A stretch of 63,994 bases of DNA, filler included, from Bonamia ostreae (GCA_040357525.1; 14 parts of 14 records of this genome joined end to end with filler, not necessarily neighbours in it); one strand, 5' to 3'; numbered from the whole stretch's first letter, positions 5,407-63,813 are shown. Notes: generated by a model from the sequence alone, not told the origin. Numbers and translations: made by a program.

Positions 5407-7451
5407 ATGGCTATTATTTTTTTCTTTATCATAAAAATTTGCATCCAGAAAAGTTTTTGTTTCAAGTGCTCTTTTTTAATTACTTTTGTAGAATTGTAAA
5501 AAAAATTAAAATAAGACTGTGAAACAACAAGATTAAAAACCGAGTTGCAATCAAAATCAATAAAATTCTCTCAAAACGATCTTTGCAATCAGATTGAAGT
5601 TCAAAGTGGAACAAATTGCGAAGTCGTTTGTTCGCTTGAAAATAACGTCTTTTTATATTCCAATCCTTCGACAAAATCTTTTCTTTATTGTGATAATGGA
5701 AAATGGTTATATCCTGTCACTTTCCTCTTTCAGACTTTCTATGAAGATTTTGAAGGATCTGACGAGTTTAAATGTACTGGTTTCAATGCTTTTTACGTCA
5801 AATTTTTTTGTTAAAAATATTATTTTCTGATTTTAAATAAAAGAAAGTGATCCTAATCGATTTTGCAATTTGGAAGGAATAAAAACTGAGTACACGACAT
5901 TTTTGACGAACCAAACATTCATTTTTGAAGGAGAAAACTTGAAAATTGTCTGTTTAAAGAACACAGAAATCGCCCCATTCGACATTTATTGCCAAAACCA
6001 AATTTTGTACTTTGACAATTATCTAATTGACACCATTTTTAGTGTAGAAAAAGCAAATCTGTTTTGTAAATCAGATTGTGATTTGCCAGAATATCGCCAA
6101 ATTTCTTCCAATTGCATTGAAACCACTCAAAAACATGGAAACTCTTGCGTCTTTTTTTGTAATTCCTCAAACGAGCTATTAAACATTGACGACAAAAGCA
6201 CTTCTTCATTGGAGTATTCATGTAAAAATGGCGAATGGGTAATGCCAGATGGCGAAAATGGCGTCTTCGGATGCAAATCTGTTTCAGAAGCCAATAAAAA
6301 GCACTGCAATTTTAACTTTGAGAATTTGATCGATTTGGAGTACAACGTTAAATCAATCGGAACTGACCAAACAGTTAAAGCGCAATGCTCCAAAATAAAT
6401 TTCAAATTTCATATTGGTTGTTACAATGGCTATATCATAAACACAAGCAGCTTGTTACCAATAACATCGTGGTATTGTGACAACATATGCAATCTGGCAT
6501 CTTTGAATGATTTTCTGGGATCAAAAAGTGCCCTTTTTTTGAGAAACATTAATTTTGTCGAGAAGTCGTATTTTGAGAATAGTGGTATCTATGGAAAGGT
6601 CGCTTGTGCGCCCAAAAAGATGATGAACACTTTTGATTCGACTTTATTTGATGTCGAATGTTTTGAAGGTAATTGGATCGTTTCGTACGGTGATAGTTCT
6701 TCGAATTGTGTCGGTTTAGTATAAAATAGAAAATTCGGTTAAAAACAATGAATTCTAAAATTAAGACGCGCGAGAAGAATCATATTATTCTTTCGAAAAT
6801 TTGAACGAATCGTTTATTGAAACAAACGGAATTCCAGGAATCGTCTATAATCAACCGGTGGAATTGAAATGCAAATCTTCCGCCAAAAAAATTAAATTCC
6901 ATTATAAAAAACATTTAAAAAAAGTAAAAATCGGCAATTTTTACATTTCGCCGCAGACCGAAATAACTGAGAGGCAATATCGAATTTTATGCGATGGTTT
7001 AATTATTTTCTAAATAACAAAATTTAAAAGAGTTCTGCAGCTTGAACGAATTCGAAAATTTGCTTAAAAAGACAAATGTCCTCCCAAAAACGAAAGATTG
7101 TATACTAAATCCCGAATTAATTCAATCTGGGGCAAACATATTTGAACGAAAGTGTGCATTAATTTGTCGATATGGCTACCAATCACCCAACAACAACAAT
7201 TTGGGAGAAATCGAATGTCGAAACTACAGATTTATTCACATTTCAAGTGAAAAAGTGGACACAAATCCAAAGATTATAATTGATTCGATGTGTCGAGGTT
7301 TTAATTGGAATTGCAAGACACAAAAACGAAGACTTGCGATTACGAGGCGTTAAGTTCATCTGAAATTAATGAAGAAAGGGAGAAAACCCTGAGAGACTAT
7401 TTGAAAGACTGCGAGGGGAAAGAAGATGAATGGGGAGATTGTGTTGTTTAA
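5407..7451 (+). CDS. Cys-rich, probably secreted sushi/CCP-like repeat protein (about 600 aa, 5 introns)
   Basis: Hydrophobic N-terminus MAIIFFFIIKICIQK; repeated GxxCxxxC and CxxGxW motifs (CDNGKW, CKNGEW, CFEGNW, CALICRYGY). Introns 5453-5515, 5780-5843, 6714-6765, 6997-7030 and 7298-7317 join the ORFs in frame. Confidence 0.7.
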
Positions 7452-7508
7452 TAAAGCGATAAAAATTGTGTCCTTGTAACTTTCTTAAATCAAAAAATTA
7501 TTACCAAC

Positions 7509-8583
7509 ATGTTTTGGTCGTAACCACTGCAAACTAATCCAAAAACAAAATTCTGTTTGATTTGGGCCAGACCATCTTTGGTTAACAGAAATAATTTCCA
7601 CTTTAGATGAAACCAATTACTGCGAAAAAATTGAATTTATCGATTAATCAATTTATTCGAAATATCTTTTTAATGAAAGATTTTCTCGCCAACTTTGAAT
7701 ATGTTTTGAGCAGAATCGTTGCAAACAAAGTCGTCTTATTTTTTGATTGTTTCGGAATTCGAATTTTGCTTAAAACAAAGACGACGGCACATTGACGCCA
7801 ATAACAAAAGACAGGAAAAATGCTTTAATACCGCAAAATCTGCGAGAAGCGTTGGCCCATTTGAACAGATCGGCCAGAATCGATGTAGCGGTCGTCAGCG
7901 GAAGAACGGTGCCCGAATTAAAGAAGTTCATAGGTCTGTCAGATTTTCTGTACGCCGGAAATCACGGCTTTGAGATAATTAAAGGAGACAAATTGCTTTT
8001 AAGAAAAGGCCATGCTTTTCGACGATTAATCAAAAAAGTGAGAAAAAAGCTAACACGAACATTCGAGGATTTTGCGCGCACTGGAATACTCATCGAAGAC
8101 AAAAGCCTCAGCGTAGCAATCCATTACCGGGAAGCCATTAACAAAAGCGTTTTGTCGGCTCATGCAATAAAACAATTGGCTCTGGACGCCATTAATGAAA
8201 TCGGGGACGGCAAGAAATTGAACTTAAAAAAGGGGAAAAAGGTTTTCGAGATAGTTCCCGACGTGGGATGGCACAAAGGGAAAGCGGTAAAATGGATTTT
8301 AGAGGACTACTTTGGCATTTCGAGGGCGCGAAATGCCGTTGTTGTCTATGTCGGCGATGACAAAACAGACGAAGACGCATTTTTAGAAATAAAAAAGCTA
8401 AAGTTTGTGGAAGCTTTTAGTGTGTTGGTTTCGAATGGTTTTTAAATTTGGATTAATTTTTTGTGAGTTTTGATTCAATGCAAAAAAGACGCGTCTGAAA
8501 GAGAAAGTTCAAATGCAGATTACTTCGTCCGCGATTCAGAAGATGTTCGCGATTTGATCGAGAGATTGAATAAACGCATTTAA
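7509..8583 (+). CDS. Trehalose-6-phosphate phosphatase (HAD IIB, OtsB-like)
   Basis: Splicing restores VVLFFDYDGTLTPI; also VVSGR, YAGNHGFEI, IEDKSLSVAIHYR, HKGKAV and YVGDDKTDEDAF. The 5' exons are uncertain. Confidence 0.9.
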
Positions 8584-8705
8584 AGCTTTCACCAAAATAC
8601 CAAAATAAAAGTTTAAATGCCTTCAGACATAACGCCAATTTTAGCCAAATTATATTAGTTTAAAATAAGTGCTATTTAAAATTAGCCAGACTAAATTTAA
8701 TAGAA

Positions 8706-9065
8706 ATGAGTGCCATGAACCGCAACAGAAACCAGAAGATAATGGTACAACCAAGTTCTTTCGTAAAATTTAAGTCAATCTGATTTTCCAATTTATGCAA
8801 TCCGACGCCAAAGTCCGAATAAACTTCAACGAAATAAACACTTTTGCGATCGAGGGCAAAATAATTGTTTTCAAAAATGAAGTTTTCCTAAAAGGGCTTC
8901 GATGAGTACATGAACCTCGTTTTGAACGACTCAGAAGAAATCCTTTTGAAAAAGAACAGTCGAAATCAGCTCGGAAAAATAATGCTGAAAGGGGACAATA
9001 TAAGTTTCATAATGAAAGCGTTTTTAAAATGATCACATTAAAATAACAGACCTCCCGCGGCGTGA
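8706..9065 (+). CDS. SNRPE: Small nuclear ribonucleoprotein E (SmE), 3 introns
   Basis: Spliced QKIMVQPINLIFQF...[21 protein letters not shown]...[12 protein letters not shown]. Not in the ORF track. Confidence 0.95.
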
Positions 9066-9403
9066 TAAATGTTCAGCGTTTTTTGCACATATTTTTGAGC
9101 TTCAAAATGAGCGAGTCAAAAAATTTAAAAATCTATGTTTCGCCCATTCTTGTCCATCAGTTCCTTTTANNNNNNNNNNNNNNNNNNNNNNNNNNNNNNN
9201 NNNNNNNNNNNNNTTAATTAATTAANNNNNNNNNNNNNNNNNNNNNNNNNNNNNNNNNNNNNNNNNNNNCAAACTTTTTAAAAAGTTCATCTTATTTTTT
9301 GCTTTTATTATTAATTTTGCTGTTTTGTGCAAGAGGAAGATATTGATGTAATTTTGCATTTTGCTTTTCGGAGTTACAGAAATATTGCAAATAATATAGA
9401 AAA

Positions 9404-12400
9404 ATGTCGCAAACAAAAATAACCGATGTCCTTTCAGAACCTGAAAGGTTTTTGAATGATCTGATTTTGATCTTTAAAGAACCATTTTTGATTTTGAGAG
9501 TTTTAACGAAATACAGTCCGCGATGTTTAAGAGCTGTTACGAACAGAATTCCAATTTGGTTGTGACAGCTCCTACTGCTTCCGGGAAAACTGTCATTTTT
9601 GAAATTTGTATTTTGAGATTATATCGTTCGCACTTTACGTTTTAATATTTTTCGATTTTTATATTCGTTTCGAATTTGCAGCTTTTTAAATGTCTTCTTT
9701 TTATTCTGCAAATTTTAAAAATTTAATGTTCTTTTCATCGTTCAAAAACTAATAATTGAATATCAACAATTTAAATTTAGCAACCTTGAACGTCCAGAAA
9801 ACCTTCCGAACGAAAAAACGCCCAAAGTCGCCTATATCGCGCCCCTCAAAGCACTAATCAGTCAACGAACCGAAGAATGGCATTTTTATTTTCAACATTT
9901 TAACATTATCAGGAAAAACAAGTTTTCGAAGTTGAAAATGCGAGTTGAAGATCTGAACAGCGAATATGATATTTTCGAGGATTTTAGGAAACTTTGTAAC
10001 AACGATATTTTGTTTTTAACATAACCGACTTAATTTTTGTCAATGTTTGTTGTCCAATTTGGCATTAAAATTGTCGAATTAACAGGTTGTCGACGCCTGA
10101 AAAATGGGACATTTTAACAAGGAGATGGGAAGAACACGAAAATCTATTCAAAAACATCAAAATCGTAATCGTTTTCATTTTTCATAAAAGATCGACGAAA
10201 TTCATTTGTTGAACGATGAAAGGGGCGGATGTCTGGAATCGCTGATAACTCGACTTAAAATAAGACTTGCCAACACGCAAACTCGTTTTGTTATTGCTAG
10301 CGCAACGATTCCGAATTTGGAAGACTTCTCAGATTGGCTGAACGCGAAAAAGTTTTCTTTCGGAGAAGAATATCGACCAGTCCCTCTTCGATGCCACATT
10401 TCGCCTGTTTTGCAAAAAGGAAATAATTCTTTTTTGTTCGAAAATTCTCTGAATTCTCTTGTTTTCCCTGTCATCCAAAAATACGGCGATCGTAAACCAG
10501 TGCTCATTTTTTGCAATTCAAGACGTTCCACAGAAAAACTTGCTTTATTTCTCAAATCAGATTTTTCTGTATTTGAATATATTAAAAGCGAGAAAAAAAA
10601 TTTGAACAATTTTAAAAACGATAAACTTAATCGTTTTAATTTATTGTCGATTTTAGTAATTTTGCAAACTATTTTTCAATATTGTTCAAAATGTCAATTT
10701 TAATTAAAAGCTGTCCGCTTTTGAATGTCGTTAAAAAAATTTAAAGAGCTTATAGAAAGCGAAATATCATTTCACCATGGCGGTCTCGACAAAGAAGATA
10801 GGTTAAAAATAGAAAAGATGTTTGCGGAGGGGAAGATAAAGGCGCTTTGGTAACTAAAATTTAAATGACAGTTCAACAAGTACTCTTTCAATGGGAATAA
10901 ATTTGCCTGCACATTTAGTCATTATAAAATCGACAGAAATGTATGTTCGTGGAGAGGGATATAAAGAATATCCTTTAATTTCGATTATTCAAATGATTGG
11001 AAGGTTAAAAATTTGGATTTCTGAGACGATATTAAAAAGTCGAAAATTTTTATAATTTTTAATTTTTGAGATGAAATTTTAATTTTTCAGACGATATTAA
11101 AAAGTCGAAAATTTTTATAATTTTTAATTTTTGAGACGAAATTTAAATTTTTCCGACGATATTAAAAAGTCGAAAATTTTTATCAATTTTTAATTTCTGA
11201 GACGATATTAAAAAGTCGAAATTTTTTTTATCAAAATTAAAAATCAGGGCAGGAAGACCGCAATACGATAAAGAGGGAATAGCTGTTGTTTTGACAAAAA
11301 CGGAAACATCAGACATTTACAAAAATTTATTTTCTGGTAAAACAGCAATTGAATCAAATTTTTTGCCTCGAATTACAGAATATTTAGCCGCGGAGCTAAT
11401 TTCTCACAAAGAATTTAATATCAAAATCGCGAAAAAATGGATCAAAAACACTTTTTTATGTTCTAATTTTTTAAACTATTTCTTATTGTTTTAGAATTTA
11501 AAGCTTTAATAAAACGAATTTATTTAAAGATATCAGATGTTTGAAAAACCCGAAAAAATACGATATAAAATTTGATAACGTCGAAAAATTTTTAGAACAG
11601 AAATGTCTTGATTCGCTAAACAAATTGTCAAACGAAGTTTAAAAATGATCATTTTTATTGTAAAAAAGAATATTATTTTGAGAGGAGAAAACGGGCGATT
11701 TATTAAAAAGATCGAAACTGTTCTGATGAACAAATATTATTTATCGTTTGAGACAATTAAAGTTTTTGCAAAAATTTATAGAATATGTTGTCGTTCTTTG
11801 AACGAAGTCGAAACGATTCTGAGATAAACCTCATTCAAATCATCAATAATTTTGCTAATTTTGACGAATTCGAAGCTTTTTTTAATTTAACTTTTAACCA
11901 TTTTTCGATTTTTCTGGAAATATTCATAAAAAGCGATAATATAAAATAAAAAGACGTTAAGAATAAGATACGGCGAAAAAAAATTTTTAAACGAATTAAA
12001 TAAAAACAAAGACTTGAGACTAAAATTTAAAGGAAGAATAGTCTTTAATTGGCAAAAAATATCTATTCTAATTCAACTTTGTCTTTCAAACTCAAATTTT
12101 CCCAAAAATTACGAGTACATTTAATTTTAATTTGAATAAATTACAAAAAATTAAAATAAATAAAATTCGTTTTTGAGTAAAGTAAAAAATTAATAAAAAT
12201 TCTTTTTTGATTAAATAACAAAAAAGTTCGATTTTTAACAAAAATTTTTTACAATTGGATTAAATTAATAAAAAAATTTGAAAATTAAAAAAAAAGATTG
12301 AAACAAGATCAAAAACATATTCGATTTAAAATGCTAAAAATATGTTCATGCCAAATCGAATATTTGCTCTTTCAAAAAGAACAAAATCTAAATTTAATCA

Positions 12401-13633
12401 AAAAAATTCTCAATTTGTTTTTTCTTCTAAAATTACAAAATTTAGAAAGAAAAGTTTGAGCCGAAAAATTTGGTTTGACGAAAATAAAGAGTTGATCCAA
12501 ATTGACGGAATCGGTCCTGTTTTCACAGAAAAATTTTCGAAAAATAATAGTTTTATTCAATTTGAAATTTAGTTCATAAAATTTGTCAATTAGAAAATTT
12601 GTCAAGCGACGAAATCGAAATGGTTTTCTATTTTAATAAACTATTTAAATTTGGTTTAAAATTATTTCAATTTAAAAAATTTAAGATAACAAACAGAAAA
12701 CCGCCATTCGGAATGAAAATTTTGCACCAAATAAAATCAAAATTTCCAAAAATAATAATTTCAACCCTTTTCGAAAACAATTTATTAAAAATTTGTCTAA
12801 ATTTCAAATTTAACCAAAACAAAATTTTTACGGCTTTTGCTTTTGTTTATTGTTTTTGTTCAAATTTAAATAATCAAAAAAGCGATTGATAACGATACAA
12901 AATCAATAAATCTGCTAAAATCCGAAAAGATAACATTTAAAGTTCAAAAAAACGAGCTTAAAAAAGAAATTTTTATAAAAACGAATAAAAACAAATTAAT
13001 TTTTGAATTGCTATTCGAAGATTTTATCGGACGAGACAAAAAACTGCAAATTTTAAACAAATTTTCTCCGACCGTCCTTACAAGAAAAATTTGTCCAATA
13101 AATGCAAATTTGCAAGAAAAGTCGAAAACATTTTGTTCAATTAATTCCAAAACGAAAAAAATCACAGAGCATTTTGAAACAGTAAAAAATTTTAAGATCG
13201 AAAAATGTAAAATCGGAAATTACAAAAATAGTTTTTCGCCTTTTGCAAAATCGATAAATAACCTCAAAGTTCGAAATAAAAATTTGAACAAAATGGCGAC
13301 TTTCAAGTTTTTGTTCAAATAATATTTAAACCAAAAAGACAACAAAATAATTTTACACAAAACAATTTTCTTTTGATAGACAAAAAAGAAGAGCTTAAAC
13401 TTAGCAAAAACACGAAAAGAGTCGAATTAAAAGTTATAAGAAATATTGTAGAGAATTCTGAAGATTTGCCTAAAATAAGAAGAATAAGAAAAAAAGGAAA
13501 TTTTCGAAAATTTGTAAATGAAATCGGTTTTGGAATGGATAAAAGGAAGTTTGAGGACAAAGAAAATATTGATCCGGTTTACAAAAATTTAAAATCAGGG
13601 AATGAATGTGGCTGCGAAGAAGCCGATTTTTGA
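9404..13633 (+). CDS. HFM1: Meiotic Ski2-like DNA helicase MER3/HFM1 with a Sec63 domain (many introns)
   Basis: APTASGKT, STPEKWDILTRRW, IDEIHLLNDERG, SATIPN, FGEEYRPVPL, STSTLSMGINLPAHLVIIKST, QMIGRAGRPQYD, NRKPPFG. Confidence 0.88.
11020..11225. repeat. Intronic tandem repeat in HFM1
   Basis: Four copies of gacgatattaaaaagtcgaaaatttt. Confidence 0.9.
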
Positions 13634-13883
13634 TTACAGAAAATCGGTCGAAGATTTATTTTAAATGTCAAAGCGTTTAAATTTTAATGCAAATTAAAAA
13701 AAAAAGAAACAAAGGGTAAAATAATCCGATCATTTTGCCATTTTTATAAAATTTTGTAAAAAATAATTTCGAATACAAATTAANNNNNNNNNNNNNNNNN
13801 NNNNNNNNNNNNNNNNNNNNNNNNNNNTTAATTAATTAANNNNNNNNNNNNNNNNNNNNNNNNNNNNNNNNNNNNNNNNNNNN

Positions 13884-14075
13884 GGCTGTTTAAACTAATT
13901 GCGATTTTTTGTAATTTAAAAATGGTTGTTTAAAACAATTGCGATTTTTTGTAATTTAAAAATGTTTGTTTAAAGCAATTGCGGTTTTTTGTAATTTAAA
14001 AATTGTTGTTTAAAACAATTGCGATTTTTTGTAAATTTAAAAATGGTTGTTTAAAACAATTGCGATTTAAAAAAT
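13884..14075. repeat. About 40-bp tandem repeat
   Basis: About 5 copies of ggttgtttaaaacaattgcgattttttgtaatttaaaaat. Confidence 0.9.
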
Positions 14076-14199
14076 GGTCGTTTAAACTAATTCAAATTTT
14101 AAAAGAAAAATTTTTTTACAACATTTTAACAAAAACTTCAAATTTGATAAGAACAAAACTTTTACAAAACTTTTACAAACAAATATTTAAACGACCAAA

Positions 14200-14637
14200 G
14201 ACCAAGTTAACGCAATAAAAATCTCATCTTGCCATTTTAGGTCAATTGAAATCCAAAATTTTACAAAATTCGTTTTAATACAATTTGTTTTACAAAATTT
14301 AACGGATGACGGCATCCTTGGCCCCGTTAAAATCTTTTCGGTCGAGACAGAAGTCGATCACACTGATCGCCGCGCTGTCCATGAAGAACCTCAGTCCTGT
14401 AGACTGGAACGCCTCGATCACTTTCTCGTTCACTTCGTTCTTATTTTTGTTTTTTTTCTTCAAATATTTCTTCATTTTTTGCGCTTTCCGGCGATTTTCT
14501 TGTTCGACCATCTCTTTCGGTTTCACCCAAGTCACTTTGTTGGAGAAAGTGTGGTAGTAATAGATGCGGCCACTTTCTTTGTCGAGTGCACCCCGCCATC
14601 TGCCGAATTTTTCTGAAATATTAAAAGTAAAACTCAT
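14200..14637 (-). CDS. WW-domain protein, 3' truncated by the contig end
   Basis: WRGALDKESGRIYYYHTFSNKVTWVKP is a WW motif; followed by a GT-AG intron and a short exon. Confidence 0.75.
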
Positions 14638-15484
14638 TTCGAATTCTATTGAAGAGTTCTATAAGAGCTTTCACAATGACAACTTTTGAATATACTGAAA
14701 TCACTAAAACTAAGGTTTATAAAATTTTAGTAAGTAAAAATTGATTTTGAATAAAATTTCAGTAAAACAGATTTTCGCGTTATTTTCTGTAATTTTTTAG
14801 ATTTTTCATATATTTTTGTTTTTTGCTATTTTTAATTTTTGTGCGTATATTTTTAATTTTTGTGCGTATATTTTTAATTTTTGTGCGTATATTTTTGTTT
14901 TTGTGCGGATAATTTTTGTTTTTTTGTGATTTTTGATTGTTCTAATCAGATCGTTCATTAGTGATTCTGCTAATTAAAATTACAAATAATGAACCTCCAT
15001 AAAAACAACAAAAAGTTTCTTAAAATAACTCAAATGATATAATTAATGTTCATTTTGGCATTTTAAGATCAATGATCTCAAACAAACCTTCTGATTCCAT
15101 CCATTGACGGCCATTTTTGGAAATTTTAGAGAGAATTCGTCGTCTTTAAATATGAAAGTATCGAAAATAAAATTGGAGGCGAAATTTTGATAGTTGAAAT
15201 AAAAGACAAGTCGACGTAAATACAATAAGGTCGACTTATAAAACTCAGTGGAAGTGTCGATAAACAAATGAATTTTTTTATCGAAAAAGTTGAATGTCGA
15301 TCATCAGAAGTCTTGAGATTGTTAGTTGAAGAATATGTTTGAGGGGAAACTGGTTTTAATTTTGTAAAGATAAATTACTGTTCAGTTTTAAATACTGTTC
15401 AGTTTTGACAAAGCGAATAAATTACTTTTTTACATTTATATTGTGGCTCTTTTAAAAAGATTTTGTTATAAGAAAATAAGAAAG

Positions 15485-15799
15485 TCATTTATCTTCAACA
15501 CAATAGCAAGTTCCCCAGGTGTAAGTGAAGGGCTCTTTTGCAGTGAAAGGCAGTAAAGTGTTTCTAAGACGGGTGAAATTGAGGCATTTAGTAAATTTTT
15601 TGTCGGCGACCATTCCCGGATTTTTGAATTTTCGGTTGCAAAGATTTGTGCAACAGTTTCGGAGAATGGTGGAATTGCACATTGAATCGACTTTGTTTTG
15701 GATTAAGCAATTGTTGTAATCAGAGTCCCACAAAGGAAAGCCATTTCGACTCGAAGCAATGCAATTGAAGAAATGAGAGAGCACTAAAAGAAAAAGCAT
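15485..15799 (-). CDS. Small secreted Cys-rich protein with defensin-like Cys spacing
   Basis: Signal-like MLFLLVLSHFFNCIAS, then 8 Cys including CCTNLC (CxxxC) and GTCYC (CxC). An upstream ATG at 15865 is also possible. Confidence 0.65.
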   Translation of the reverse strand: MLFLLVLSHFFNCIASSRNGFPLWDSDYNNCLIQNKVDSMCNSTILRNCCTNLCNRKFKNPGMVADKKFTKCLNFTRLRNTLLPFTAKEPFTYTWGTCYCVEDK

Positions 15800-15963
15800 T
15801 TGATTCTCAACTGTGTCGTTGAGAAGAATATCGTCAAAACTAATGATAATTATTGTGGCGAGCATATTATACTATATCGATAAACACAAAAAATTTAGCT
15901 CAAAGCTATTTTTATAAACGACAATCGCGTATAGTTTCCTAAATTTTAAATAGGTTTTAAATA

Positions 15964-16328
15964 ATGGCCCAACGAATTACATACAGAAAAAGGCAACCGT
16001 ACAGGACCAAATCGAACAAGATAAAACCGTTTTCTAAGCCATTTTTAGAGTTCGCACGCCCGGAGGCAAACTCGTTGCGCATTACCACAAGAAGAAGGCG
16101 AGAGGACCCAAATGCGGCGATTGCGGGACGTCCATTCAAGGCATAAAATGTCTCCGTCCCAGACAATACCACAAATTAAAGAAGAAAGACAAGACTGTCT
16201 CGCGCGCGCACGGCGGCTCGAAGTGCCCGAAATGCGTTAGTCAGCGGATTTTAAGAGCGTTTCTCGTCTACGAACAGAAACAAACCAAACAAAACAAGTT
16301 GCCTAAACCGAAAGTTAATAAATCCTGA
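15964..16328 (+). CDS. RPL34: 60S ribosomal protein L34 (eL34), 20-nt intron at 16029-16048
   Basis: [31 protein letters not shown]...PKCGDCG...TVSRAHGGSKC...ILRAFL. Confidence 0.97.
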
Positions 16329-16413
16329 CTAGCTTGATTGCTTTTCCATTTTAGGACATCTCGCTCAAATATTAACAAATTTACTTTCGCTTTTTGGCAT
16401 AAAAAATTAGACA

Positions 16414-18303
16414 TCAAAATTTACTTTCGTCTGAAATAACGCAAACGTCGTCGTCTCGCTCTTTCGCTTTTTTGTTTTTATCTTCCACGCTTTCTTTTCC
16501 GTCCTTTTGGCTCTTTCGCTTGTTCCCGGACATTTGTGTTTTGGCTAACAATTTATGGCTTTCCAAAATAAAACAATGGTCAACTCGCGGAGTCACGTTT
16601 TTGCTGAGTTTGAACCGCTCGTCGTTCTCTTCTTCGCCAAGATCTTGTCTAAAATTTTGATACAAAAATTGCAAAAGTTCTAATATATCAGACGCGAAGC
16701 CCTAAACAGCTAAAAAATGGCTCGAACAATAACTGGTGAGAGACCATTATCTTGAGCGTAAACTTTTGCTTGTCGTCTGAAACCGTTAACATGCTGCCGT
16801 GGTTGATTTTGATCGCCTCGCGCGAAAGGGGGTTTTGGAAGTAATCGGCCATCCACTTCTCGTTGCCGTCCCAGTCGGAAATGTCTTCCGATATAAAGTT
16901 GGCGTGTGAGCCGTAAGTGACGTCCACAACGGGCTCGACCATCCCAAGTTTCTCTTTTAAAACGTCATCAAAGAGCTCTCTCAGCGTCAGCACCCGCGTG
17001 TTGCAGACCATGTTTATGCTCTGCTTGCTACAAACGATGCACTTCTTGCTGGGCGGGCTCAAAGCTTCGGGCTGGATTATCCTCGAGCCCGCGTAATTGA
17101 GCTGAATCCAGCTGCGCTGGCACTTTTTGAGGTTTTCTTTTTATTTTGTCAAAAAACGGGCAATCAGCACTTTCCAAGCTTCAATTGCCATGAGCCCGGC
17201 GCATATTGCGTTTGTAGTGGCTATCGCGTGCACGATGTTGCCAGCGATTCCTTTCGCCTTGAACCGGCTGATAGTGTCGATTCCGTAGTTAGCCATTCTC
17301 AGATTTGCAGCGAAATGCACAAAATCCATCGCTGTTCCGTCGTCTTTGTCAAAGCCGTGAAAGGCATTGCCGTCTTTTAAAATCTTTTCGACGACAGCTA
17401 GAAATCCGTTCGAAAGATTTTCCAGCAAATCTTTCTTTTTCAAAATTTTCGAAAATCCCTTTTCTTTTAACAATCCGTTTTCTTCCGAGAGTCCATTTTC
17501 TTTCAAAAATCCATTTTTGCTTTCGCTTATAAAATCGCTCAATTTTAGAGGAACCGGTTTCTTTCCGTTGCTATCAGCGAAATTTTCTTTTAACTTAATC
17601 GCTTCGAGCCGATCCAGAATGGTGCGCTCAAACAAAAATTCATACAATCGTCTCGCGTATTCTAGGCCGTTTTCGTCTTCGCGCTTCGCCATTTTCATGT
17701 CCGACATTTCGCTGTTTTCGATCTCGTCGGAAGCGAACAAGACACCGAACATCATTTTGGCCCACGCGATGCAATGGACCGGCTTTTCGGGCGTGTCTCT
17801 GATCGTGCAAACAGGGAACGTCTTCGGGGCCATCTTTTCCACGCACTCGTAGCATTCACTGAAACCCTTCTTTATCAGGTAGACTTGCCCGGAGTACCCT
17901 TGCGTGCCGCTCTCGATGAGCGGTTTCCCCAGCGCGACGCAGATCCGGTTGACGTGTCTTCTGGTCGGGAGGTTGTCGAGCGCGTTTATGATCAAGTCGA
18001 ATTTCTGGAAAAAGGGGGTACCGAAACGAGCGTCTTTTATGTTACCGTGATGAGCCGTTATTCGCGCGTCGCGGCAAAAGTTTTCTGAGCGCCTTTTCGC
18101 TACGATCGCTTTCGGCTGGCCGATGTTGCTTTGTCTAAACAGGAATTGTCGGTTTAGGTTGGAAAGTTCTATTGTGTCCAAGTCCACCTTTTGTTTGGAG
18201 AATTATTGCTAAAGAAACGATGTGGATGTCGACGAATCCAGTAACGACTAGATTTTTCAGTAGTTCGCAGCCTATTCCTCCGGAGCCGACAATCAAAATC
18301 TTC
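16414..18303 (-). CDS. UBA2: SUMO-activating enzyme subunit 2; 5' end unresolved or truncated
   Basis: [68 protein letters not shown] and a CxxC motif. Confidence 0.93.
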
Positions 18304-25975: not shown

Positions 25976-26032
25976 AAACCTTAAATAAACTGTGGAACGA
26001 ACTATAAAGAACCTTTTAAAACTGTGCACTGT

Positions 26033-27555
26033 ATGGAATCCGATTCTTTCGACGACGACGACTTCGAAGACGTCACCGGCGCGCTGAGGGCTCTCGACGT
26101 CACCGGGAATGCCGAGTCGCCCTTCGCGTCGATGACTTTGGCCGAGCTCGCCCTGTTCGCGAGAGAAAAAACCGAGCGCTTCGCGCGAAAGCAAAACCTG
26201 TCGGGGGATTGCGCCGAGCTGGTTCTGAAGCAAATCGGCTTCGACGAGTCCAAGTACTCGCCAGAAATGGCCGAGCTCGCGGCGAAAATCGACGCGAAAC
26301 TAAATAGCATCGATATTGATCGACGCGGAAAGCCGCGGATCTGCAAGATCTGCTGCGGGGACTTGTCCGAAGCGGTTTCCGGGGTCCCGTGTGGCCATCG
26401 GTTCTGCGGCGAGTGTTGGAAACAGTATCTCGAGACGGCGATGCAGACGAGCGGGATCAACGCGGCGAAGGTCGCGTGCCCGTTTTACGGCTGCAACTCG
26501 ATTCTGCTGTCGTCTTTTCTGGACACAGTTCTGGCCGATGAGACGCGGGCGCGCTACGAGCGGTTCTGCGCCGACTTTTTCGTCTTCCACTCGGAAGACG
26601 CCATCGACTGCGTCAACCCGAAATGCGACCTCTTCGTCTGTAGAACCGGCGGCGATGGGCGGCGGCACGGACGATGCAAATGCGGCGCGCTGTTTTGGTT
26701 GTTTCAGCCATTTTTAGCTTCGTCTGCGAAGCGGAGGACCACCGGCCCGCGACCTGCGCGCAAGTTTTTTTTGCCACCGAAGCGCTCCGCGTGGGAGAAG
26801 AAGTACGAGAGCGAGTCGAGTTCGGCCAGCTACTTGCTGGTGAACACGAAGCTCTGCCCCAACTGCGGCTCGCGGATCGAGAAGAACAAGGGCTGCAACC
26901 ACATGGCTTGCTTCAACTGCCGCCACGAGTTCTGCTGGGTCTGCCAGCGCGACTGGACGGAACACAGTTTGCACTTTAACTCGCAGACGCCAAGACGGGC
27001 GGCTTCTACAGATGCAACGTCTACAGAGAGCTGAAGCTGAAAGGGGAACTGGGGCGGGATAAGAAGAGGCAAAAGTCTGCGAAGTACTTGTTCTATTACC
27101 TGCGGTACCAGAACCACGAGCAGTCGCTCAAGTTCGCGCAGAGAAACCTGTCGGACCTGGAAGCGAAGATCTCGCTCTTGTGGAAGACGGACGACGAGTC
27201 CTGCTGGAGCGACTTTGACTATCTGCGCGACGCGCTGCTGACCGTAACCAAAGTTTTTTCGGGCGTTGTAGTGTCGCAAGCTGCTAAAGTACACCTACAT
27301 CGCGGGATACTTCATGGAGGAGTCGCCTGAGAAAGAGTTGTTCGAGTACTTGCAACAAGACTTGGAGAAAAACACAGTTTTTTGTCTGAATTAATTCTGC
27401 GAAGGAAGCGTTGCACGGACTGGTAGAGGCTCCCGCGGAAAAACTGGATCGAAGCGCGATAACTAGTCAATCTGGATTAGCCAAAAACGTTTCTTAAAAA
27501 ACCAAAACAGTTTTCAGAGAATTTGTTGAAGGCGGACACCGAAAGTCATAATTAA
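26033..27555 (+). CDS. Ariadne-family RBR E3 ubiquitin ligase, 6 introns of 19-28 nt
   Basis: RING1 CKICC...CGHRFCGECW; IBR; RING2 NTKLCPNCGSRIEKNKGCNHMAC...HEFCWVC; Ariadne domain YYLRYQNHEQS, CRKLLKYTY. Confidence 0.95.
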
Positions 27556-31429: not shown

Positions 31430-32104
31430 ATGGCAACAACCCCAAAAAACGACATTGGAATAATAGCAATCGAAAGCTATTTTCCACGATTTTACGTCGA
31501 ACAAAACGAAATCGGCTTTTATAAAAACTAATTTTTTCTATAAAATTTGTTAAACAATAAAATTTTTGTTAAACAATAAAATTTTAGAAGAACACTACAA
31601 AATACCAAAAGGAAAGTGCACAATTGGACTCGGACAATCCGGAGTATGTTTTGTAAACGACAGAGAAGACGTCGTCTCAATGGCGTTAACTGGTAACAAA
31701 TCAAATTCCGCCAAAAAATTAAGTGTTTTCGAAACTAATGGCGTCATATAAAATCGATTACAAGAACGTCGGCAGATTGGAAGTGGCCACTGAGACTATC
31801 CAAGACCACTCAAAATCGATAAAAACGTTTTTGATGCAGCTTTTCCGCGAAAGTGGAAACTTCAACGTGGAAGGGATCGATAGCACGAACGCTTGTTACG
31901 CGGCGACGAACGCCTTTTTCAATTCGGTGGCGTGGATAGAAAGTTCAGATTGGAATGGCAAGTACGCCATTGTTGTTTCCGTGGACATCGCAGAATACGA
32001 AAATGGGCCGGCGCGTCCGACGGGCGGGTAACTTTTTCTGAATAAAAGAGCTGGAGCAGTTGCGTTTCTCGTTGGGCCGCAATCGAACATTGTTTTCGAA
32101 AAAC
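31430..32104 (+). CDS. HMGCS: Hydroxymethylglutaryl-CoA synthase, 3' truncated
   Basis: IGIIAIESYFP, GKCTIGLGQ, VGRLEVATETIQDHSKSIKT, EGIDSTNACY, GPARPTGGAGAVA. Confidence 0.96.
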
Positions 32105-37887: not shown

Positions 37888-40183
<2,296 letters not shown>

Positions 40184-43654: not shown

Positions 43655-45483
43655 ATGATTGCCGGAATAGCAAAGCATCTTTTAAAACAGTTACTTAATT
43701 TTTTCATTTCTTTTCTATATTCAACTTCTCTTTTGGTCTTCAATACGATAAGGTACTTTCAGAGTTACCTTTTTGGCAACAAAAAAACAATAAAGTTTCT
43801 TCTAATTACTAAAAGTTTTAAAAAATCAAATTTGAAAATTACCATTCTTGAGCAAATCGGAGAAGGGGGATATTCATTTGTGTACGCGGCAAAAGACCAA
43901 ACCGGAAGACGATTTGCAGTCAAAAAAGCTCTTGTTCAAAGTAAAGAGCAAAAAACGGTAAATTTTGTAATGTCGTTAATGTAACAATAAAATAAAAAGC
44001 AAACAGACAAAGAAATAACAACAATGAAGGAATTCGATAGTCCTTATCTTTTAAAACTCATCGACGAAAAAAAAGAGCCACATGACAGTTATCTCAATTT
44101 TTATAACCATTTTTTGTTATTGCCATTCATCGAAGTTTTTATTTTCTGTGCTTTATAAAAACATCTACACAATTATGCGTCACAAATCAAAATCACAAAG
44201 AATTGTTAAAAATAAAGCTAATTCAATAATATAAACAAAATAATTGGATTGCCAAAAAATGTAAAAAATCAAAAACTGGATTGCCAAAAATTGTTTAAAA
44301 ATAACGCAAAAATTGCAATAAAATCCAAATAAACAAAATCTGCAAATCAATAAATTTATCGATATAATTTGACCAAAAATGTAAAAAAAATTATTAAAAA
44401 TAATTTGCAAAAATTCACCAAAAATTAGTTAAAATTGCTATAAAATCCAAATAAACAAAATCTGCAAATCAATAAATTTCACCAAAAATGCAAAAAAATT
44501 ATTAAAAATAATTTGCAAAATTCACCAAAAATTAGTAAAAATTGTTATAAAATCCAAATAAACAAAATCTGCAAATCAATAAATTTATCGATATAATTTG
44601 ACCAAAAATGTAAAAAAATTATTAAAAATAATTTGCAAAAAAGCAAATTTAAATCGTAAAAACTTGTAAATAATAACAATTTTACGACCCAAAAAAATAA
44701 AAAGCAAGGAAGTCTTCAAGACATTCTCAATAAAAGAATATACAGCGGAAACCTTTTCGAAGAAAAGACCATTTTTACCATTTTCGGAAAAATTTGCGAA
44801 GGAATTAGAACTCTCCACGATTCTGAGCCGCCATTGGCTCACAGAGACATCAAACTCGGAAATGTGCTCGTCGATTCTGTTTACAATCCGTTCATAATGG
44901 ATTTCGGCTCTGTTTCCGAAGCCCGTAGACAAATCCGTTCGAGAGAAGACGCCGTCGAACTTTCTGATTGGGCTTCGATGCATTGTACAAAGTTTTACAT
45001 TTTTGTAAGTTTTTGGCTATTTTTATCTTTTCGACAAATTTGCAATTTTTCGTTTTTCTTGTTTATTTTTGACCAATTTTGAATTTTTGCTATTTTTGGT
45101 TTAATTTATCTTGCGCCAATTTTATAATTTCGTTAACAATACGAATTGAAAGTGCCTACAGACCACCCGAATTACTAGATTGCCCCAGTGAAATAGACGT
45201 CGACGAAAGAACAGACATTTGGGTTTTCATCTTAACAATAAAGTCGCTGGGATGTCTTTTGTACGGAATGGCGTTCGGCCAATCGCCGTTTGAAGACAGC
45301 GGAGGAACAACAAGTGTGACCTTGGCAGTTTTTAGTGGCAAAATAGCCTTTCCGGAAGATAACAAGTATTCGAAAGATTTTGTAAAGATGGTTAAGTGGA
45401 TGGTCAACTTAAATGCTGAAGAACGTCCTTTTATTAAAGATGTCATCGAAAGAATTAAGAACTTATTGAATAATCATAAATGA
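43655..45483 (+). CDS. STK16: NAK-family Ser/Thr kinase (STK16/Env7-like)
   Basis: IGEGGYSFVY, FAVKK, AHRDIKLGNVL, MDFGSVSEAR...DWASMHCT, YRPPELLD, DERTDIWSLGC. Confidence 0.88.
44290..44640. repeat. Compound tandem repeat in an STK16 intron
   Basis: Three copies of aaaatccaaataaacaaaatctgcaaatcaataaattt...aaattattaaaaataatttgcaaaa. Confidence 0.9.
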
Positions 45484-48316: not shown

Positions 48317-48319
48317 ATG

Positions 48320-48737: not shown

Positions 48738-48749
48738 TCAATAATATAA

Positions 48750-53058: not shown

Positions 53059-53080
53059 TTTTTAGATAAAGCGAAAGCAT

Positions 53081-55036
53081 TTAATTTGTCCATTTAATCT
53101 TTCCGAGATCAATTCCTTGATTGACCATATCCCACAGCGGCGAAATATCTCTCAATTTGTTAACATGCTTTACTGTCTCTCTTATCGCTGTGTCGACTTC
53201 TTCTTCCGTTGTAAATCGCCCTATTCCGTATCTTTATATTTAATTACAAAGCTTTAATTTTATAAGCTTTTCGCACAATTTGATAACTTTTTAATTTCCA
53301 ATTATTAAATGCTGCATATAACTGATGCACACATCGCAGCGCAGACATAAATTACAACGAAATACAATTTTATGCAAAACTTTATAAAAAAACACAAAAA
53401 TGCAAAAATTTGAAAAGCTCCAAAAATTACATAAACGCAAAAATTAAAGTCCTACCTTATGGATGTATGCGCCATATCGTCAGAGACACCTATGGCCCTC
53501 AAAACGTAAGATGGCTCTAAACTTTCCGAAGTGCAAGCGGATCCGCTGCTTACCGCTATTTTGTTCATTCCCATCATTAGACTTTCTCCCTCTACACAAG
53601 AAAAACTCAAATTAATGCATCCGGGATATCGCTCTTTTTCATCTCCATTCAAAGTGATTTTGTCGAGCTGTGACCTTATTCCAGTTAACAGCTTCGAAGC
53701 CAAACGCGAAACGTGTTGGTAATCCTGGTCGAGATTGTTATGGCTCAACTCACACGCTTTGCCAAGCCCGACGCATAGAGCGGGCGAAAGAGTCCCGCTC
53801 CTCAATCCGCGTTCTTGTCCGCCGCCACTGAATAAGGGAACTAAACGTACTCTCGGACGTTTTCTTACATACAGAGCGCCTGTTCCTTTTGGCCCATAAG
53901 TCTGTTTTTTTTTACATTTTTTCAAACAGCAAATTGTGATTTTCTGATTTTTAAATATTCTAAAAACTATTCAACAAAAAATATTTATTCGGCAAAAAAA
54001 TATTTAATCAACAAAAAAATATTTAATCAACAAAAAAATATTTAATCAACAAAAAATATTTAATCAACAAAAAAATATTTAATCAACAAAAAAATATTTA
54101 TTCGACAAAAAATATTTATTCGACAAAAAATATTTATTCGACAAAAAAATATTTATTCGACAAAAAAATATTTATTCGACAAAAAATATTTATTCGACAA
54201 AAAAAATATTTAATCAACAAAAAATAAAATTTCCAAATTATCAAAATTAAAGATTGTACTTTGTGACCAGAAATTGAGAGAGTAGCAACATTTAACGCCC
54301 GGACATCTACGGGGATTTTTCCGACGGCTTGAGCGGCGTCGCAATGAAAATGAACATTGTGTTTTTTGCAGATTTGGCCAATTTTTTCCACAGGTTGAAT
54401 AACGCCGATTTCGTTGTTTACGAACATTGCGCAAACGATCGATGTTTTGTCTGGAATTATTGCTTTTTCAAGCACCTTAATTTTTAAAATTTTTAAGTGA
54501 CATTTTATTAATTATCGACAGAATGCAAAATTAAACTTTTAAGTCAACCAATCCATTTTTTAATACGGGTAAATAAGTTATTTTGAATCCTCTTGTTTCT
54601 AAAAAACGGCAAGAGTCTAAAACGCATTTATGCTCCTTTGAGATTTTATAAAATTTGGTTGTTTTTAAACTGTTTGTAAAGCGATTAGGTGGTTTTTGCG
54701 AGATTTATAAAATTCAGCCATTCCTTTTATTGCGAGATTATTTGATTCGGTCGCTCCAGATGTAAAAATAATTTCTCTTGATTCCGCGTTTATTAATCTT
54801 TATAATTAAAATTTTTTAAAATTGAACATTTTTTCCGATTCAAATTTTACAAATTAAAACAATTTTTTATTCAATTTTGTAATTGACTTTTAAATATTTA
54901 AACTTTGCTATTTTTTCTCTTGCATCTTCAACGGCTTCTTCTGTTTCCCACCCAAACACTTTTGAAAATTAGAATAATTTTTGTCAAAACTGTGATTTCT
55001 CGAATGCGGGTTTCCATATTTATCCGTGAAAAATGG
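53081..55036 (-). CDS. NFS1: Cysteine desulfurase, 5' truncated
   Basis: [75 protein letters not shown]. Confidence 0.97.
53970..54225. repeat. About 18-bp tandem repeat in an NFS1 intron
   Basis: About 13 copies of aatatttaatcaacaaaaa / aatatttattcgacaaaaa. Confidence 0.93.
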
Positions 55037-58498: not shown

Positions 58499-59662
58499 AT
58501 GCCGAAGATTATTCTAATAACTGGAGGCGTAGTTTCAAGTGTCGGCAAAGGCATTATTACCTCTTCTCTCGGATATCTTTTAAGAACTTTTGGAGTTAAC
58601 ATCACTTGGTCCATTTTTAAATTTCAAATTTCTGATTTGATTAAAATAAAAATCTCTCTCACAATTTGAGCCAAACACAAAAATTATTAAAGCTAAAAAT
58701 AATGGTTTCCATTATATTATAACGAGCACAATAAAAATGATTTTAAATCGTCAAATGACGTATTTTAGTAATAACATAATTTAAGTAATGGCGTAAATTA
58801 AATAATGGCCTAATCAAAATAATGGCAAAATAATGGCGTAATCAAAATAATGGCAAAATAATTGCGTAATTAAAATAATGGCCTAATCAAAATAATGGCA
58901 AAATAATGGCGTAATTTAAGTGAACCTCTTTAGACAAAAATCGAATTATTACAAAAACGATTATAATAAAGCATAAAAATCGATCCATATTTGAACATCG
59001 ACGCTGGCACAATGTCGCCATTTGAACATGGCGAAGTTTTTGTTTTACAAGACGGGGGCGAAGTCGACCTCGATCTTGGAAACTATGAGCGATTTTTGGA
59101 TTTAGTTTTGACCAAAGACAATAATATCACCACCGGGAAAATTTTCGACCTCATTTTGCAAAAAGAACGACAAGGTCATTTTCTCGGCAAAACCGTCCAA
59201 ATCGTTCCACATGTGACTGGAATGATCAAAGAATGGATTTTAAGGCATTTTTCCACTTAAGCCAAAATTGACAATTTAAATTCCAAAATTTGAAGAGTGG
59301 CAAGGATTCCGACGGACGGAACCGACAAAGTTCCGGACGTTTGTTTGATAGAATTGGGGGGAACTCCCGGCGACATCGAATCGATGACGTTTTACGAGTC
59401 CCTTAGGCAACTCCGATTTGAATTGGGGACAGATCAGTTTTTGCACATTCATGCGACTTTTGTTCCGGAGCTAAGTCTTTCGGGCGAACAGAAAAGCAAA
59501 CCCGCGCAACAACATTTAGTTGAATTGAGGAAAGCTGGTTTTGCAGAATTTGCAAAATTTTAATAAAAGGTCTCAACGCGGATGTAATAATCTGCAGATC
59601 AAAAATCAAATCATCGGAAAAAATTCTCAAGAAAATATCTCTGTACGGAATGGTGAAGTACG
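58499..59662 (+). CDS. CTPS: CTP synthase, 3' truncated
   Basis: [63 protein letters not shown]. Confidence 0.98.
58785..58915. repeat. Intronic repeat in CTPS intron 1
   Basis: Copies of aaaataatggc(g/c)taatc. Confidence 0.85.
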
Positions 59663-61524: not shown

Positions 61525-61559
61525 TTGGTGAGTAATAATTAAATGTAAGTTAATAACTG

Positions 61560-62010
61560 ATTTTTTTGTTGTTTTCGAATCCATTTTTTTGTTGTTTTTG
61601 GAAGACATTTTTTTTATTTTTTCGAAGACATTTTTTTTGTTGTTTTTGGAAGACATTTTTTTTATTTTTTCGAAGTCATTTTTTTTATTTTTTTTTTTTT
61701 TTTGTTGTTTTGGAAGACATTTTTTAATTTTTTTCGAATCCATTTTTTTTGTTGTTTTGGAAGACATTTTTTTATTTATTTCGAATCCATTTTTTTTGTT
61801 GTTTTTGGAAGACATTTTTTTATTTTTTTGAATTTTTTTTTTTTTTTTTTTGTTGTTTTGGAAGACATTTTTTAATTTTTTTCGAATCCATTTTTTTTGT
61901 TGTTTTGGAAGACATTTTTTTATTTATTTCGAATCCATTTTTTTTTGTTTTGTAGACATTTTTTTTATTTTTTCGAAGTCATTTTTTTATTTTTTTTTGT
62001 TGTTTTGGAA
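61560..62010. repeat. T-rich intergenic tandem repeat
   Basis: About 10 copies of gttgtttttggaagacatttttttattttttcgaa. Confidence 0.93.
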
Positions 62011-62098
62011 GCGACTAATTGCTTTAAATAAGCTTTAAAGCAAATTTAGCCCAAATTGTTTTATATGTAAAACCAGTAACATTGACAATCATTTTCAA

Positions 62099-63813
62099 AT
62101 GAAAAGAAAATTGAACGCGAAAATAATTCAATATAAAGTAAAAAATGACCAAATCAAACAAATTTTTTCAAAATGGCAAAACTTGTCAAAATTTAGCCAA
62201 ACTGTAAATAAAAACGATTTTTTTAAAGTTTTTCAAGTCTATCTTCCGTTTTGGATTTTCGATGTTGCGGTTTTTAAAATTCATCGAATTTAGGTTAAAG
62301 CTGATTATGTGGGCCAAATAGGTTATAGACACAAAACGATCGGTTTTAGCCGTTCTCAAAATGTCTATTTTGACAGATTTAAGTACAGATGGCGTGTCTA
62401 TAATGGAGAGCATTATTGTTTAATAAAATTTTATTTTGCGATATTTTTGTAAAATAATCATTTCGAATAAAGTATTGTTGTCATATAATTTTCGATGTAA
62501 AAGAAAAGTCCGAAAATTATAAATTTTATAAAAAGCAAAATATACAAACGAAAATAAGAAAATGCAAATTTACGCTTCGAATAAGATATTTGAGCCGTTT
62601 ACACAAATTTTAAAAGGATTTGATATTAAGAAAAACGAGTGCAAAAAATTAAGTGCTTCTTTTTTGAAAACAAACAAAGCTCATTTAGAACAAATAAATT
62701 TCAGACCAAGTACACTTTGGCCCGATATTCTCAAAAATGTTGAAGAAATAGAAAAAGATAAAGCAAAAATTAAGCTTTTGGATAAACTTAATGCTCGTTT
62801 TTTAAAGAATTTCAATAAATTTGATTATTTAATTTTTGTGTTTTTAATTTTTTTTACAAATTTTAATTGTTTTTTCGTTAATTGATTTTTTTCAAAATTT
62901 AATTGATTTTTTTACAAATTTTAATTGTTTTTTTTTCAAATTTTAATTGTTTTTAAAAAATTTGATTGAAAAGATGAAGTGAAAATAAGAGATATGCGAA
63001 TAGAAGTAATGGCAAGAAAAGCAAAACTGATATATGTTCCGGCTTATGTCATCAATTACGATTGCGGCCCGTTTAAAAATAACATTTTCTTGTTAAACGG
63101 TCTTGACAAAGATAAAATGATAGGAATAAAAACTTTTAATCCATTTAAAGTTTATAAAAACTTTCAAAATTGCTTTAGCAACTTTAATAAAATTGCTTTT
63201 TGGCTCCATTTGATAAACAAAAAACTTCAAAAAGATCGGATCGGCAGTTTTGGCAATCAACTCGATCATTTTTTACACTTTATCGGGCTTTCTAATTACT
63301 GACATAGTCGCTGTAAGCTTGCTGACAATAATTCCAGCCGTTTTTAGCGGATGGCTGTCGAGACTGTTTTCGTATCGCCAAACACAAAAACTTCGGAAAG
63401 ACAGAAAAGAGCGCAACGAAAATCTCAAGACAATCGAGAGTTCGAGAAAGAACATCGAATTCGATGACGAAGAGAGCTTCGGCTATTTTTCCAATCTCTT
63501 CAACGAAAAAATTTTTCTGCAAAATCGCCTTTTTGACAAATTCGTCGAACAGAAGAGAGCCAAAATTCGAATGGCGCTAGACAAAAAGGGATACTATGCT
63601 CTGCTCGGGCTCGACCCTTCAACGCGCAAAATTACTCAAGAAGAAGTCCATAGCGCTTTTAAGAAAAAAGCGCGGACTTTGCATCCCGATCGCTTCACTA
63701 AACTTACAGAAAAGGAAATAGTTGTACGAAACGAAGTGTTTAAAGAGATAATAAAGGCTTATCAGATTTTAAAAGATGAAAAGAAGCGATCGGAATATGA
63801 CAGATTACAATAA
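62099..63813 (+). CDS. Membrane protein with a C-terminal J (DnaJ) domain, several introns
   Basis: KGYYALLGLD...AFKKKARTLHPDRF...FKEIIKAYQILKDEKKRSEYD; upstream YLPFWIFD and YVPAYV blocks and two TM segments. Confidence 0.85.

Follow-up and report, generated by a model that had tools for sequence, protein, structure and literature searches.

The stretch of DNA analysed here, the window, comprises 63,994 nucleotides (nt) of the oyster parasite Bonamia ostreae, a haplosporidian (Ascetosporea, Rhizaria), and the subject of this report is its spliceosomal introns, most of which start with GTTT (GUUU in the RNA). The DNA of the window is nuclear and eukaryotic, and its G+C content is about 31%. 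It is not one contiguous locus, being composed of 14 scaffolds in descending order of length, from 4539 down to 4232 nt, which are joined by spacers of the form N44-TTAATTAATTAA-N44 at 4540-4639, 9170-9269, 13784-13883 and so on, about every 4.6 kb.

Two open reading frames (ORFs) matched proteins already recorded for this species at NCBI. The ORF at 17141-18202 on the minus strand was 99% identical to 'hypothetical protein MHBO_001294, partial [Bonamia ostreae]', and the ORF at 58970-59260 was 99% identical to 'MHBO_001315 [Bonamia ostreae]', which assigns the DNA to this species or one very closely related to it. The genes for HMG-CoA synthase (to about 32130), CTP synthase (to about 59655) and Sec61-alpha (to 45950) were cut by scaffold ends, and these truncations are scaffold ends and no signs of pseudogenes. 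No intron was obtained from Sec61-alpha, which was cut at the scaffold end after about 73 residues. A tRNA scan of the window gave no match.

A set of 33 introns was assembled with donor positions +3 to +6 left out of account, and the counts given below refer to this set unless another number is stated. Eight introns were placed by RNA contigs and 25 by protein register, namely by comparison with homologues or solved structures, and together they fell in ten genes or transcripts on seven of the 14 scaffolds. The RNA support came from one scaffold (13884-18396), with spliced contigs from one run (X1), while 12 calls depended on a single bacterial homologue each (IscS or Ffh). Two calls in the set were weak, one in Ariadne (27377..27404) and one in SRP54 (39683..39725).

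For the spliced alignment of proteins to DNA a purpose-written aligner was used, to which only GT-AG, GC-AG and AT-AC intron ends were known. It was benchmarked on UBA2. There, three of the four RNA-defined introns lie in conserved parts, and 12/12, 12/12 and 5/12 homologues, respectively, led back to them; the fourth, which sits in the unconserved tail, was missed. False calls were confined to single homologues or small minorities of them. For this reason an intron was counted if the majority of homologues agreed on it or, where one bacterial homologue alone was used, if it was stable over parameter sets; the SRP54 call at 39683..39725 was kept as tentative.

On the scaffold at 13884-18396, the contigs of run X1 lacked eight segments, all with GT..AG ends on their own strand. 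Three of these segments (14613-14633, 16649-16733 and 17137-17157) were read through by contigs of run X3 (depth about 2), so an independent data set contains them, and the spliced one is alone in lacking them. All eight donors began with GTT and seven of them with GTTT. The RPL34 intron (16029..16048, plus strand, 20 nt) had the donor GTTTTC and the acceptor TAG, and four X1 contigs began at 16049 with the 11 letters that end exon 1. A 21-nt intron with donor GTTTTA (14613..14633, minus strand) was omitted in an X1 contig and kept in an X3 contig. Two plus-strand introns were defined by RNA joints with GT..AG ends, one of 53 nt with GTTTCT (15015..15067; joint 15014>15068) and one of 120 nt with GTTTTA (15353..15472; joint 15351>15472, read with the cut moved by +1).

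The other four RNA-defined introns belonged to UBA2 on the minus strand. The first (18188..18218, 31 nt, GTTTCT) was given by the joint 18185>18217 with the cut moved by +2, and the same intron was found with 12/12 homologues. The second (17137..17157, 21 nt, GTTTTT), also found with 12/12 homologues, was omitted in X1 and spanned by an X3 contig. The third (16649..16733, 85 nt, GTTATT) followed from the joint 16648>16734, with 5/12 homologues exact and the rest giving variants. For the fourth (16545..16574, 30 nt, GTTTTA), 30 letters were omitted in an X1 contig. A search for close relatives of UBA2 in a metagenome scan yielded 10 loci, whose best segment was at most 57% identical, so that none was close.

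Further contigs on this scaffold could be described as follows. The single contig contributed by RNA-seq run X2 covered 16137-16337 without a gap and carried a poly(A) tail, which argued against a 20-nt intron candidate at 16236, and run X4 had no contig matching 13884-18396. Two X1 joints on the plus strand were not readable as simple introns. At 14714>14963, 248 nt with GT..GT ends were skipped and nine foreign letters stood in between, which raises the question of a micro-exon or a strain difference; at 15118>15130, 11 nt with GG..AG ends were skipped. In addition, one X1 contig (14483-16001) carried the minus-strand intron 14613-14633 together with the plus-strand introns 15015-15067 and 15353-15472 and continued into exon 1 of RPL34, which suggests either overlapping transcripts on both strands or a chimera of an unstranded assembly.

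The Ariadne gene, encoding an RBR ligase, contained five introns of the set, all on the plus strand and placed mainly against the ARIH1 chain 5udh_A. Exon 1 ended at residue 216 and exon 3 started at about residue 233, and the 16-residue gap between them corresponded to the 16 codons of exon 2, so the introns 26698..26717 (20 nt, GTTGTT) and 26764..26782 (19 nt, GTTTTT) were both fixed by the register. The third (26967..26986, 20 nt, GTTTGC) was called because the frame shifts from exon 3 to exon 4, which both aligned to ARIH1/ARIH2; this call is less exact, with three extra residues left relative to the human chains. The fourth (27253..27271, 19 nt, GTTTTTTCGGGCGTTGTAG) was exact, the last residue of exon 4 being residue 380 of 5udh_A and the first of exon 5 being residue 381. 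The fifth (27377..27404, 28 nt, GTTTTT) is the weakest call of the whole set; it was read by eye as the sole GT..AG that reopens the frame, an in-frame stop following otherwise. A PDB search with exon 6 gave no match. In the NAK-family kinase, a 21-nt segment (45223..45243, plus strand, GTTTTC), in frame and without a stop, equalled a 7-residue gap relative to the GAK chains, between DIW and LGC.

SRP54 was found on the minus strand at 38406-40168 with six introns and a tentative one, as judged against E. coli Ffh; the same search did not find it at 5300-9100. The introns 39912..39931 (20 nt, GTTTTT) and 39791..39812 (22 nt, GTTTTT) restored the block ..FVGLQGSGKTT.. in the spliced alignment. 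Two others were in frame and appeared as 7-residue insertions relative to Ffh, namely 39421..39441 (21 nt, one stop, GTTTGG) and 39135..39155 (21 nt, two stops, GTTTGA). The intron 39214..39329 (116 nt, GTCTTT) was placed by Ffh register, and 38515..38537 (23 nt, GTTTAT) was the same in three parameter sets of the spliced alignment. At the tentative intron 39683..39725 (43 nt, GTAATT) the aligner picked an AT..AC variant; GT..AG was preferred there since it keeps the KGW.. block, which we take to be a feature of eukaryotic SRP54.

Six introns of NFS1 (cysteine desulfurase, minus strand) were placed against one homologue, E. coli IscS. Four of them were stable over parameter sets: 54959..54990 (32 nt, GTTTTG), 54798..54903 (106 nt, GTTTAA), 54636..54670 (35 nt, GTTTAA) and 54476..54536 (61 nt, GTTTAA). 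The two long ones, 53902..54259 (358 nt, GTACAA) and 53232..53455 (224 nt, GTAGGA), were read from the IscS register without RNA evidence, and a tandem repeat (unit of about 19 nt) lies within the 358-nt intron. A 200-nt limit on intron length produced false introns in this gene, and these were resolved with a higher limit.

HMG-CoA synthase (plus strand) contained a GC-AG intron with donor GCTTTT at 31515..31587, the donor being agreed on by 10/10 homologues and the acceptor by six for 73 nt and four for 76 nt (to 31590). Its introns 31693..31723 (31 nt, GTAACA) and 32028..32048 (21 nt, GTAACT) were each supported by 16/16 homologues and by 10/10 in a second run. CTP synthase (plus strand) contained a second GC-AG intron (59245..59295, 51 nt, GCATTT), found with 12/13 homologues and present as the same junction in the public model P0242. 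Its long intron (58609..58971, 363 nt, GTCCAT) was supported by 13/13 homologues and had no RNA support, and the annotated protein P0242 maps to both sides of it; the intron 59538..59569 (32 nt, GTTTTG) was also found with 13/13 homologues, and P0242 reads into it and stops. When GT-AG ends alone were allowed, two false introns arose in CTP synthase, and these were resolved once GC-AG was allowed.

Outside the 33, a candidate 24-nt intron with donor GTTAAA was observed in a subtilase gene at 28065-28088 (plus strand). The upstream exon ends exactly at ..SGTSMA, which aligns to residue 223 of subtilisin BPN'. The next codons of the gene read PHASG, and the segment is a probable intron. A PDB search with the second, downstream exon gave no match, and for this reason the segment was kept out of the counts.

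The donors might be suspected to be an artefact, in that introns placed by hand would tend to be put at T-rich GT sites. The behaviour of ORF-only placement lends this some weight: in six tests GT..AG was not clearly separated from decoy dinucleotide pairs, and the background of 'frame restoration' was 8-10% whatever base stood at +3, so reading-frame logic alone cannot place introns here and was given no weight. Gene finders self-trained on codon usage fared no better, since three of the four UBA2 introns they predicted were misplaced relative to RNA, and they were excluded from the counts; a single codon-usage model failed because gene G+C is too variable between scaffolds, the per-kb value spanning 21-59% between genes and scaffolds (for example 59% at 26001-27000 and 21% at 12001-13000). 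Misplacement is nevertheless the least probable of the explanations considered, because the eight RNA-defined introns give the same picture, and an aligner blind to +3..+6 recovered the conserved UBA2 introns. Furthermore, the four donors that the sequence-only reading had cited all proved to be real: 16029 from the contigs carrying the end of exon 1, 26764 and 27253 from the exact 5udh_A register, and 45223 from the gap relative to GAK.

At donor position +3, T was present in 25/33 introns, with A in six and C in two. This exceeds the T content of intron interiors (0.409; binomial p = 5e-5) and the 0.442 T found after all GT in the window (p = 2e-4). Position +4 gave the same figure (25/33; p = 5e-5 against the interior), and 23/33 introns had T at both. 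The RNA-only subset had T at +3 in 8/8 and at +4 in 7/8; without the two weakest calls the count was 24/31 at either position. Among introns supported by RNA, multiple homologues or PDB register, 15/19 had T at +3, as did 9/12 of those supported by a single bacterial homologue.

Beyond +4 the signal faded. Position +5 had T in 19/33, which is marginal against interior T (p = 0.04), and the counts at +6 (17/33), +7 (15/33) and +8 (16/33) were not significant against 0.409. One could hold that T at +3..+6 is merely the T-richness of AT-rich introns, and from +6 on this holds, with +5 at the margin; at +3 and +4 the excess over intron interiors (at +3 also over all GT in the window) and the RNA subset speak against it, and as an account of the donors it is very improbable. 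The donor signal is GUUU, not GUUUU, and T from +5 on is essentially intron composition. Thus, the GTTTT donor proposed in the sequence-only reading stood at its +3 and +4 positions, while its +5 position was marginal and T from +6 onward was background.

GTTT opened 22/33 introns and GTTTT 13/33, and the minority donors were GTA (5), GTC (2) and GC (2). The mean match to GTTTTT was 4.55 of 6 and that to GTAAGT 2.88 of 6, the latter being little beyond GT itself, and GTAAG occurred in 0/33, so that a donor complementary to standard U1 (GURAGU) does not describe these introns. The earlier claims of T at +3 in about four-fifths of introns, of G at +5 in only a handful (4/33 here), of no donor reading GTAAG and of donors that barely match canonical U1 thus agree with the present set. 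On the exon side G stood at -1 in 11/33, with no preference for G.

The 5' ends were GT in 31/33 and GC in 2/33, and the 3' ends were AG in 33/33; the aligner permitted only GT-AG, GC-AG and AT-AC, and the eight RNA introns show GT..AG independently. Acceptors read AAG in 23, TAG in seven and CAG in three. The position -3 of an acceptor is usually a pyrimidine, and here it is mostly A (p = 1.7e-4 against interior A of 0.374), so the 3' splice signal also looks atypical. No pairing signal was found for covariation of +3 with -3, as four of the five GTA donors also end with AAG. A was enriched at -9 (20/33, p = 0.006) and may mark the branch region, and no motif emerged there. The 19-nt Ariadne intron 27253-27271, whose register with ARIH1 is exact, contains no A ahead of its terminal AG, so no conventional branch A is available in it.

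Intron lengths ranged from 19 to 363 nt, with 14/33 at 19-23 nt, 16/33 at 28-120 nt and three of 224, 358 and 363 nt. T at +3 was found in 13/14 of the shortest class, 12/16 of the middle class and 0/3 of the long class. The difference between introns of at most 130 nt (25/30) and longer ones (0/3) gave a Fisher p of 0.01, with the long group very small and made up of introns without RNA support. The number of introns per conserved gene was 3 to 7 or more.

In kind, these are ordinary spliceosomal introns. The consensus of U12-type donors is [AG]TATCCTT, and 0/33 began with GTATC or ATATC; the Bonamia introns are not U12-type. They share with standard U2-type introns (GURAGU...YAG) the GT or GC start, the AG end and the removal from mRNA, and differ from them in having a purine (A) at +3 in only 6/33, G at +5 in 4/33 and AAG as the main acceptor. 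As eight introns are absent from the spliced RNA and the frequency of U at +3 and +4 clearly exceeds intron composition, we are highly confident that the GUUU donors belong to U2-type GT/GC..AG introns whose consensus has moved from GURAGU to GUUU.

How such donors are read depends first on U1. The standard U1 5' end is ACUUAC, and the ACAGA box of U6 pairs with +2..+6 (Roy and Bowser, bioRxiv 10.1101/2022.06.08.495308). The GUUU donors would pair with the standard U1 end at only about two to three positions, little beyond G+1 and U+2, with U+6 joining them in roughly every second intron. For this reason a co-evolved U1 is favoured, whose 5' end would carry A opposite +3 and +4, like the ACAAAC of Entamoeba, and would read the donor. 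We give this step, and thus the explanation as a whole, a probability of roughly 0.4.

The precedent for it comes from that preprint. In Entamoeba, 88-90% of introns have GUUUGU donors, ACUUAC of U1 is replaced by ACAAAC, and the ACAGA of U6 is unchanged; Davis et al. 2007 is cited there for the donor, and the case is termed the most direct evidence available for co-evolution of signal and small nuclear RNA (snRNA). Bonamia resembles Entamoeba in having U at +3 and +4 in donors unable to pair with a standard ACUUAC U1, short AT-rich introns in the genome of a parasite, and a branch region that probably lies some 8-10 nt ahead of the acceptor (the A at -9). Entamoeba donors continue with G at +5, followed by U at both +6 and +7; in Bonamia G is rare at +5, and T at +6 and +7 is not above background. 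The Bonamia consensus is looser (GTTT 22/33), and its conserved genes are rich in introns, down to 19 nt, whereas Entamoeba is intron-poor. A search of the Bonamia window for snRNA gave no Rfam match at gathering scores and none at E <= 5, where the five weak matches were to unrelated bacterial or fly families.

Other contacts could assist. The U6 ACAGA box would gain pairs at +3 (G.U) and +4 (A-U) and forgo the one between G+5 and C, so that GTTTTT forms four pairs at +2..+6 and GTAAGT three, with 13/33 donors reaching four. This is modest help and no explanation. The very short and narrowly distributed length of many introns probably adds definition across the intron.

Several facts weigh against a co-evolved U1. 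The consensus is loose, and the GTA, GTC and GC donors would pair badly with a U1 having A opposite +3 and +4; we infer that this minority and the looseness fit donor choice independent of U1, or tolerance by a standard U1, better. The co-evolved system of Entamoeba is strict, and according to Roy and Bowser the standard U1 was kept in most lineages with atypical donors, such as Saccharomycotina, Giardia, Mamiellales and Thecamonas. Averaged across the 33 donors, U6 pairing was not clearly better than that of the canonical donor. For the mikrocytids only U2, U4 and U6 are given as found in the text available of Zarsky et al. 2023 (PMC10245619), a set that points towards loss of U1 over its change.

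The last of these facts leads to the possibility, somewhat less probable than a co-evolved U1, that U1 pairing with the 5' splice site was lost or sidelined and that donors are chosen by contacts of U6, U5 and Prp8 together with a short, constant spacing between the donor and the branch and acceptor. GUUU would then be a remainder under U6 pairing (G.U at +3, A-U at +4) plus composition. Besides the mikrocytid snRNAs, this agrees with the small information of the 5' site beyond GT and +3/+4, with G at -1 in only a third of introns, with the 14 introns of 19-23 nt, and with a consensus loose enough to include GTA, GTC and GC. On the other hand, the gene-loss enrichment for RNA splicing was assigned to the ancestor that paramyxids and mikrocytids share, and B. 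ostreae was grouped with the less reduced lineages having 'canonical introns' (PMC11069148, available text). The introns of 224-363 nt are also harder to define by length alone.

A standard U1 might instead have been kept and its poor pairing tolerated with the help of proteins such as U1-C, Luc7 or a TIA-1/Nam8-like factor that binds U-rich sequence, in which case U at +3/+4 would be a protein preference or drift. Such tolerance is the commoner outcome in Roy and Bowser, with 69 species of Saccharomycotina, Giardia, five Mamiellales and Thecamonas, and a standard U1 would find good partners in the GTAAC/GTAAT donors (3/33). The known cases, however, involve one mismatch (a pyrimidine at +4), and here +3, +4 and +5 are mismatched in most introns; moreover, Entamoeba, the one lineage described there with U at +3 and +4, changed its U1. 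Because of this difference of one mismatch against three, tolerance is considered unlikely and ranks below both a co-evolved U1 and donor choice independent of U1.

Within Ascetosporea, the closest comparison is with the mikrocytids (Mikrocytos, Paramikrocytos), whose introns are few and uniform, of 16 nt in 217/224 cases or otherwise 17 nt, and are served by a reduced spliceosome (PMC10245619). Bonamia shares with them introns near the lower length limit and ends constrained in sequence, and differs in a minimum of 19 nt and lengths up to 363 nt. The same paper summarises introns of 18-21 nt in chlorarachniophyte nucleomorphs and 15-16 nt in heterotrich ciliates. The length mode of Bonamia, about 19-23 nt, is like theirs, but it occurs in the nuclear genome of a heterotrophic parasite, accompanied by longer introns spread over a wide range.

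Such introns also affect gene models. The public UBA2 model P0001 ('partial', 16691-18299, minus strand) reads into the 85-nt intron, and the public CTP synthase model P0242, which covers the N-terminal part (58499-59560, plus strand), ends in the 32-nt intron at 59538; both are truncated because introns were missed. Two public models of this oyster pathogen thus end early in introns of the kind described here. A mean of two introns per mRNA was published for B. ostreae (PMC11069148), below the 3 to 7 or more counted here in conserved genes, and given this and the truncated models, the gene catalogues that underlie inference of gene loss in Ascetosporea may be affected.

A transformed donor consensus is already known as a phenomenon, six lineages being counted by Roy and Bowser. 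In the available text of PMC11069148, which includes the B. ostreae assembly, the species is described only as carrying 'canonical introns', and PMC13746701 reports for Ascetosporea a drastic reduction in both the number and the size of introns. The literature searched, which did not extend to supplements and subscription-journal papers on haplosporidian actin introns, contained no description of a GUUU donor for Bonamia or haplosporidians. The Bonamia instance therefore appears new, and so does its form, with U at +3 and +4 without G at +5, an intron-rich genome, 19-nt introns and AAG acceptors.

Co-evolution of splice signals with snRNAs and tolerance of drifting signals by the spliceosome are the two sides of an open question. 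On this question Bonamia offers an independent lineage with the U+3/U+4 shift, since it belongs to Rhizaria and Entamoeba to Amoebozoa, and it does so in a different setting, with many introns per gene, a loose consensus, minima of 19-21 nt and relatives in which no U1 was found. A further-reaching reading would be that of an intron-rich haplosporidian nuclear genome that does without standard pairing of U1 to the donor, U1 being re-tooled or lost, in which both intron ends have been rewritten to GUUU...AAG, introns are compressed to 19-21 nt and at least one is spliced without a branch adenosine. This full picture is put forward as a possibility that we consider doubtful as a whole. If it is true, U+3/U+4 donors would have had a second, independent origin after Entamoeba, and remodelling of the spliceosome in Ascetosporea would have begun before the extreme reduction of the mikrocytids.

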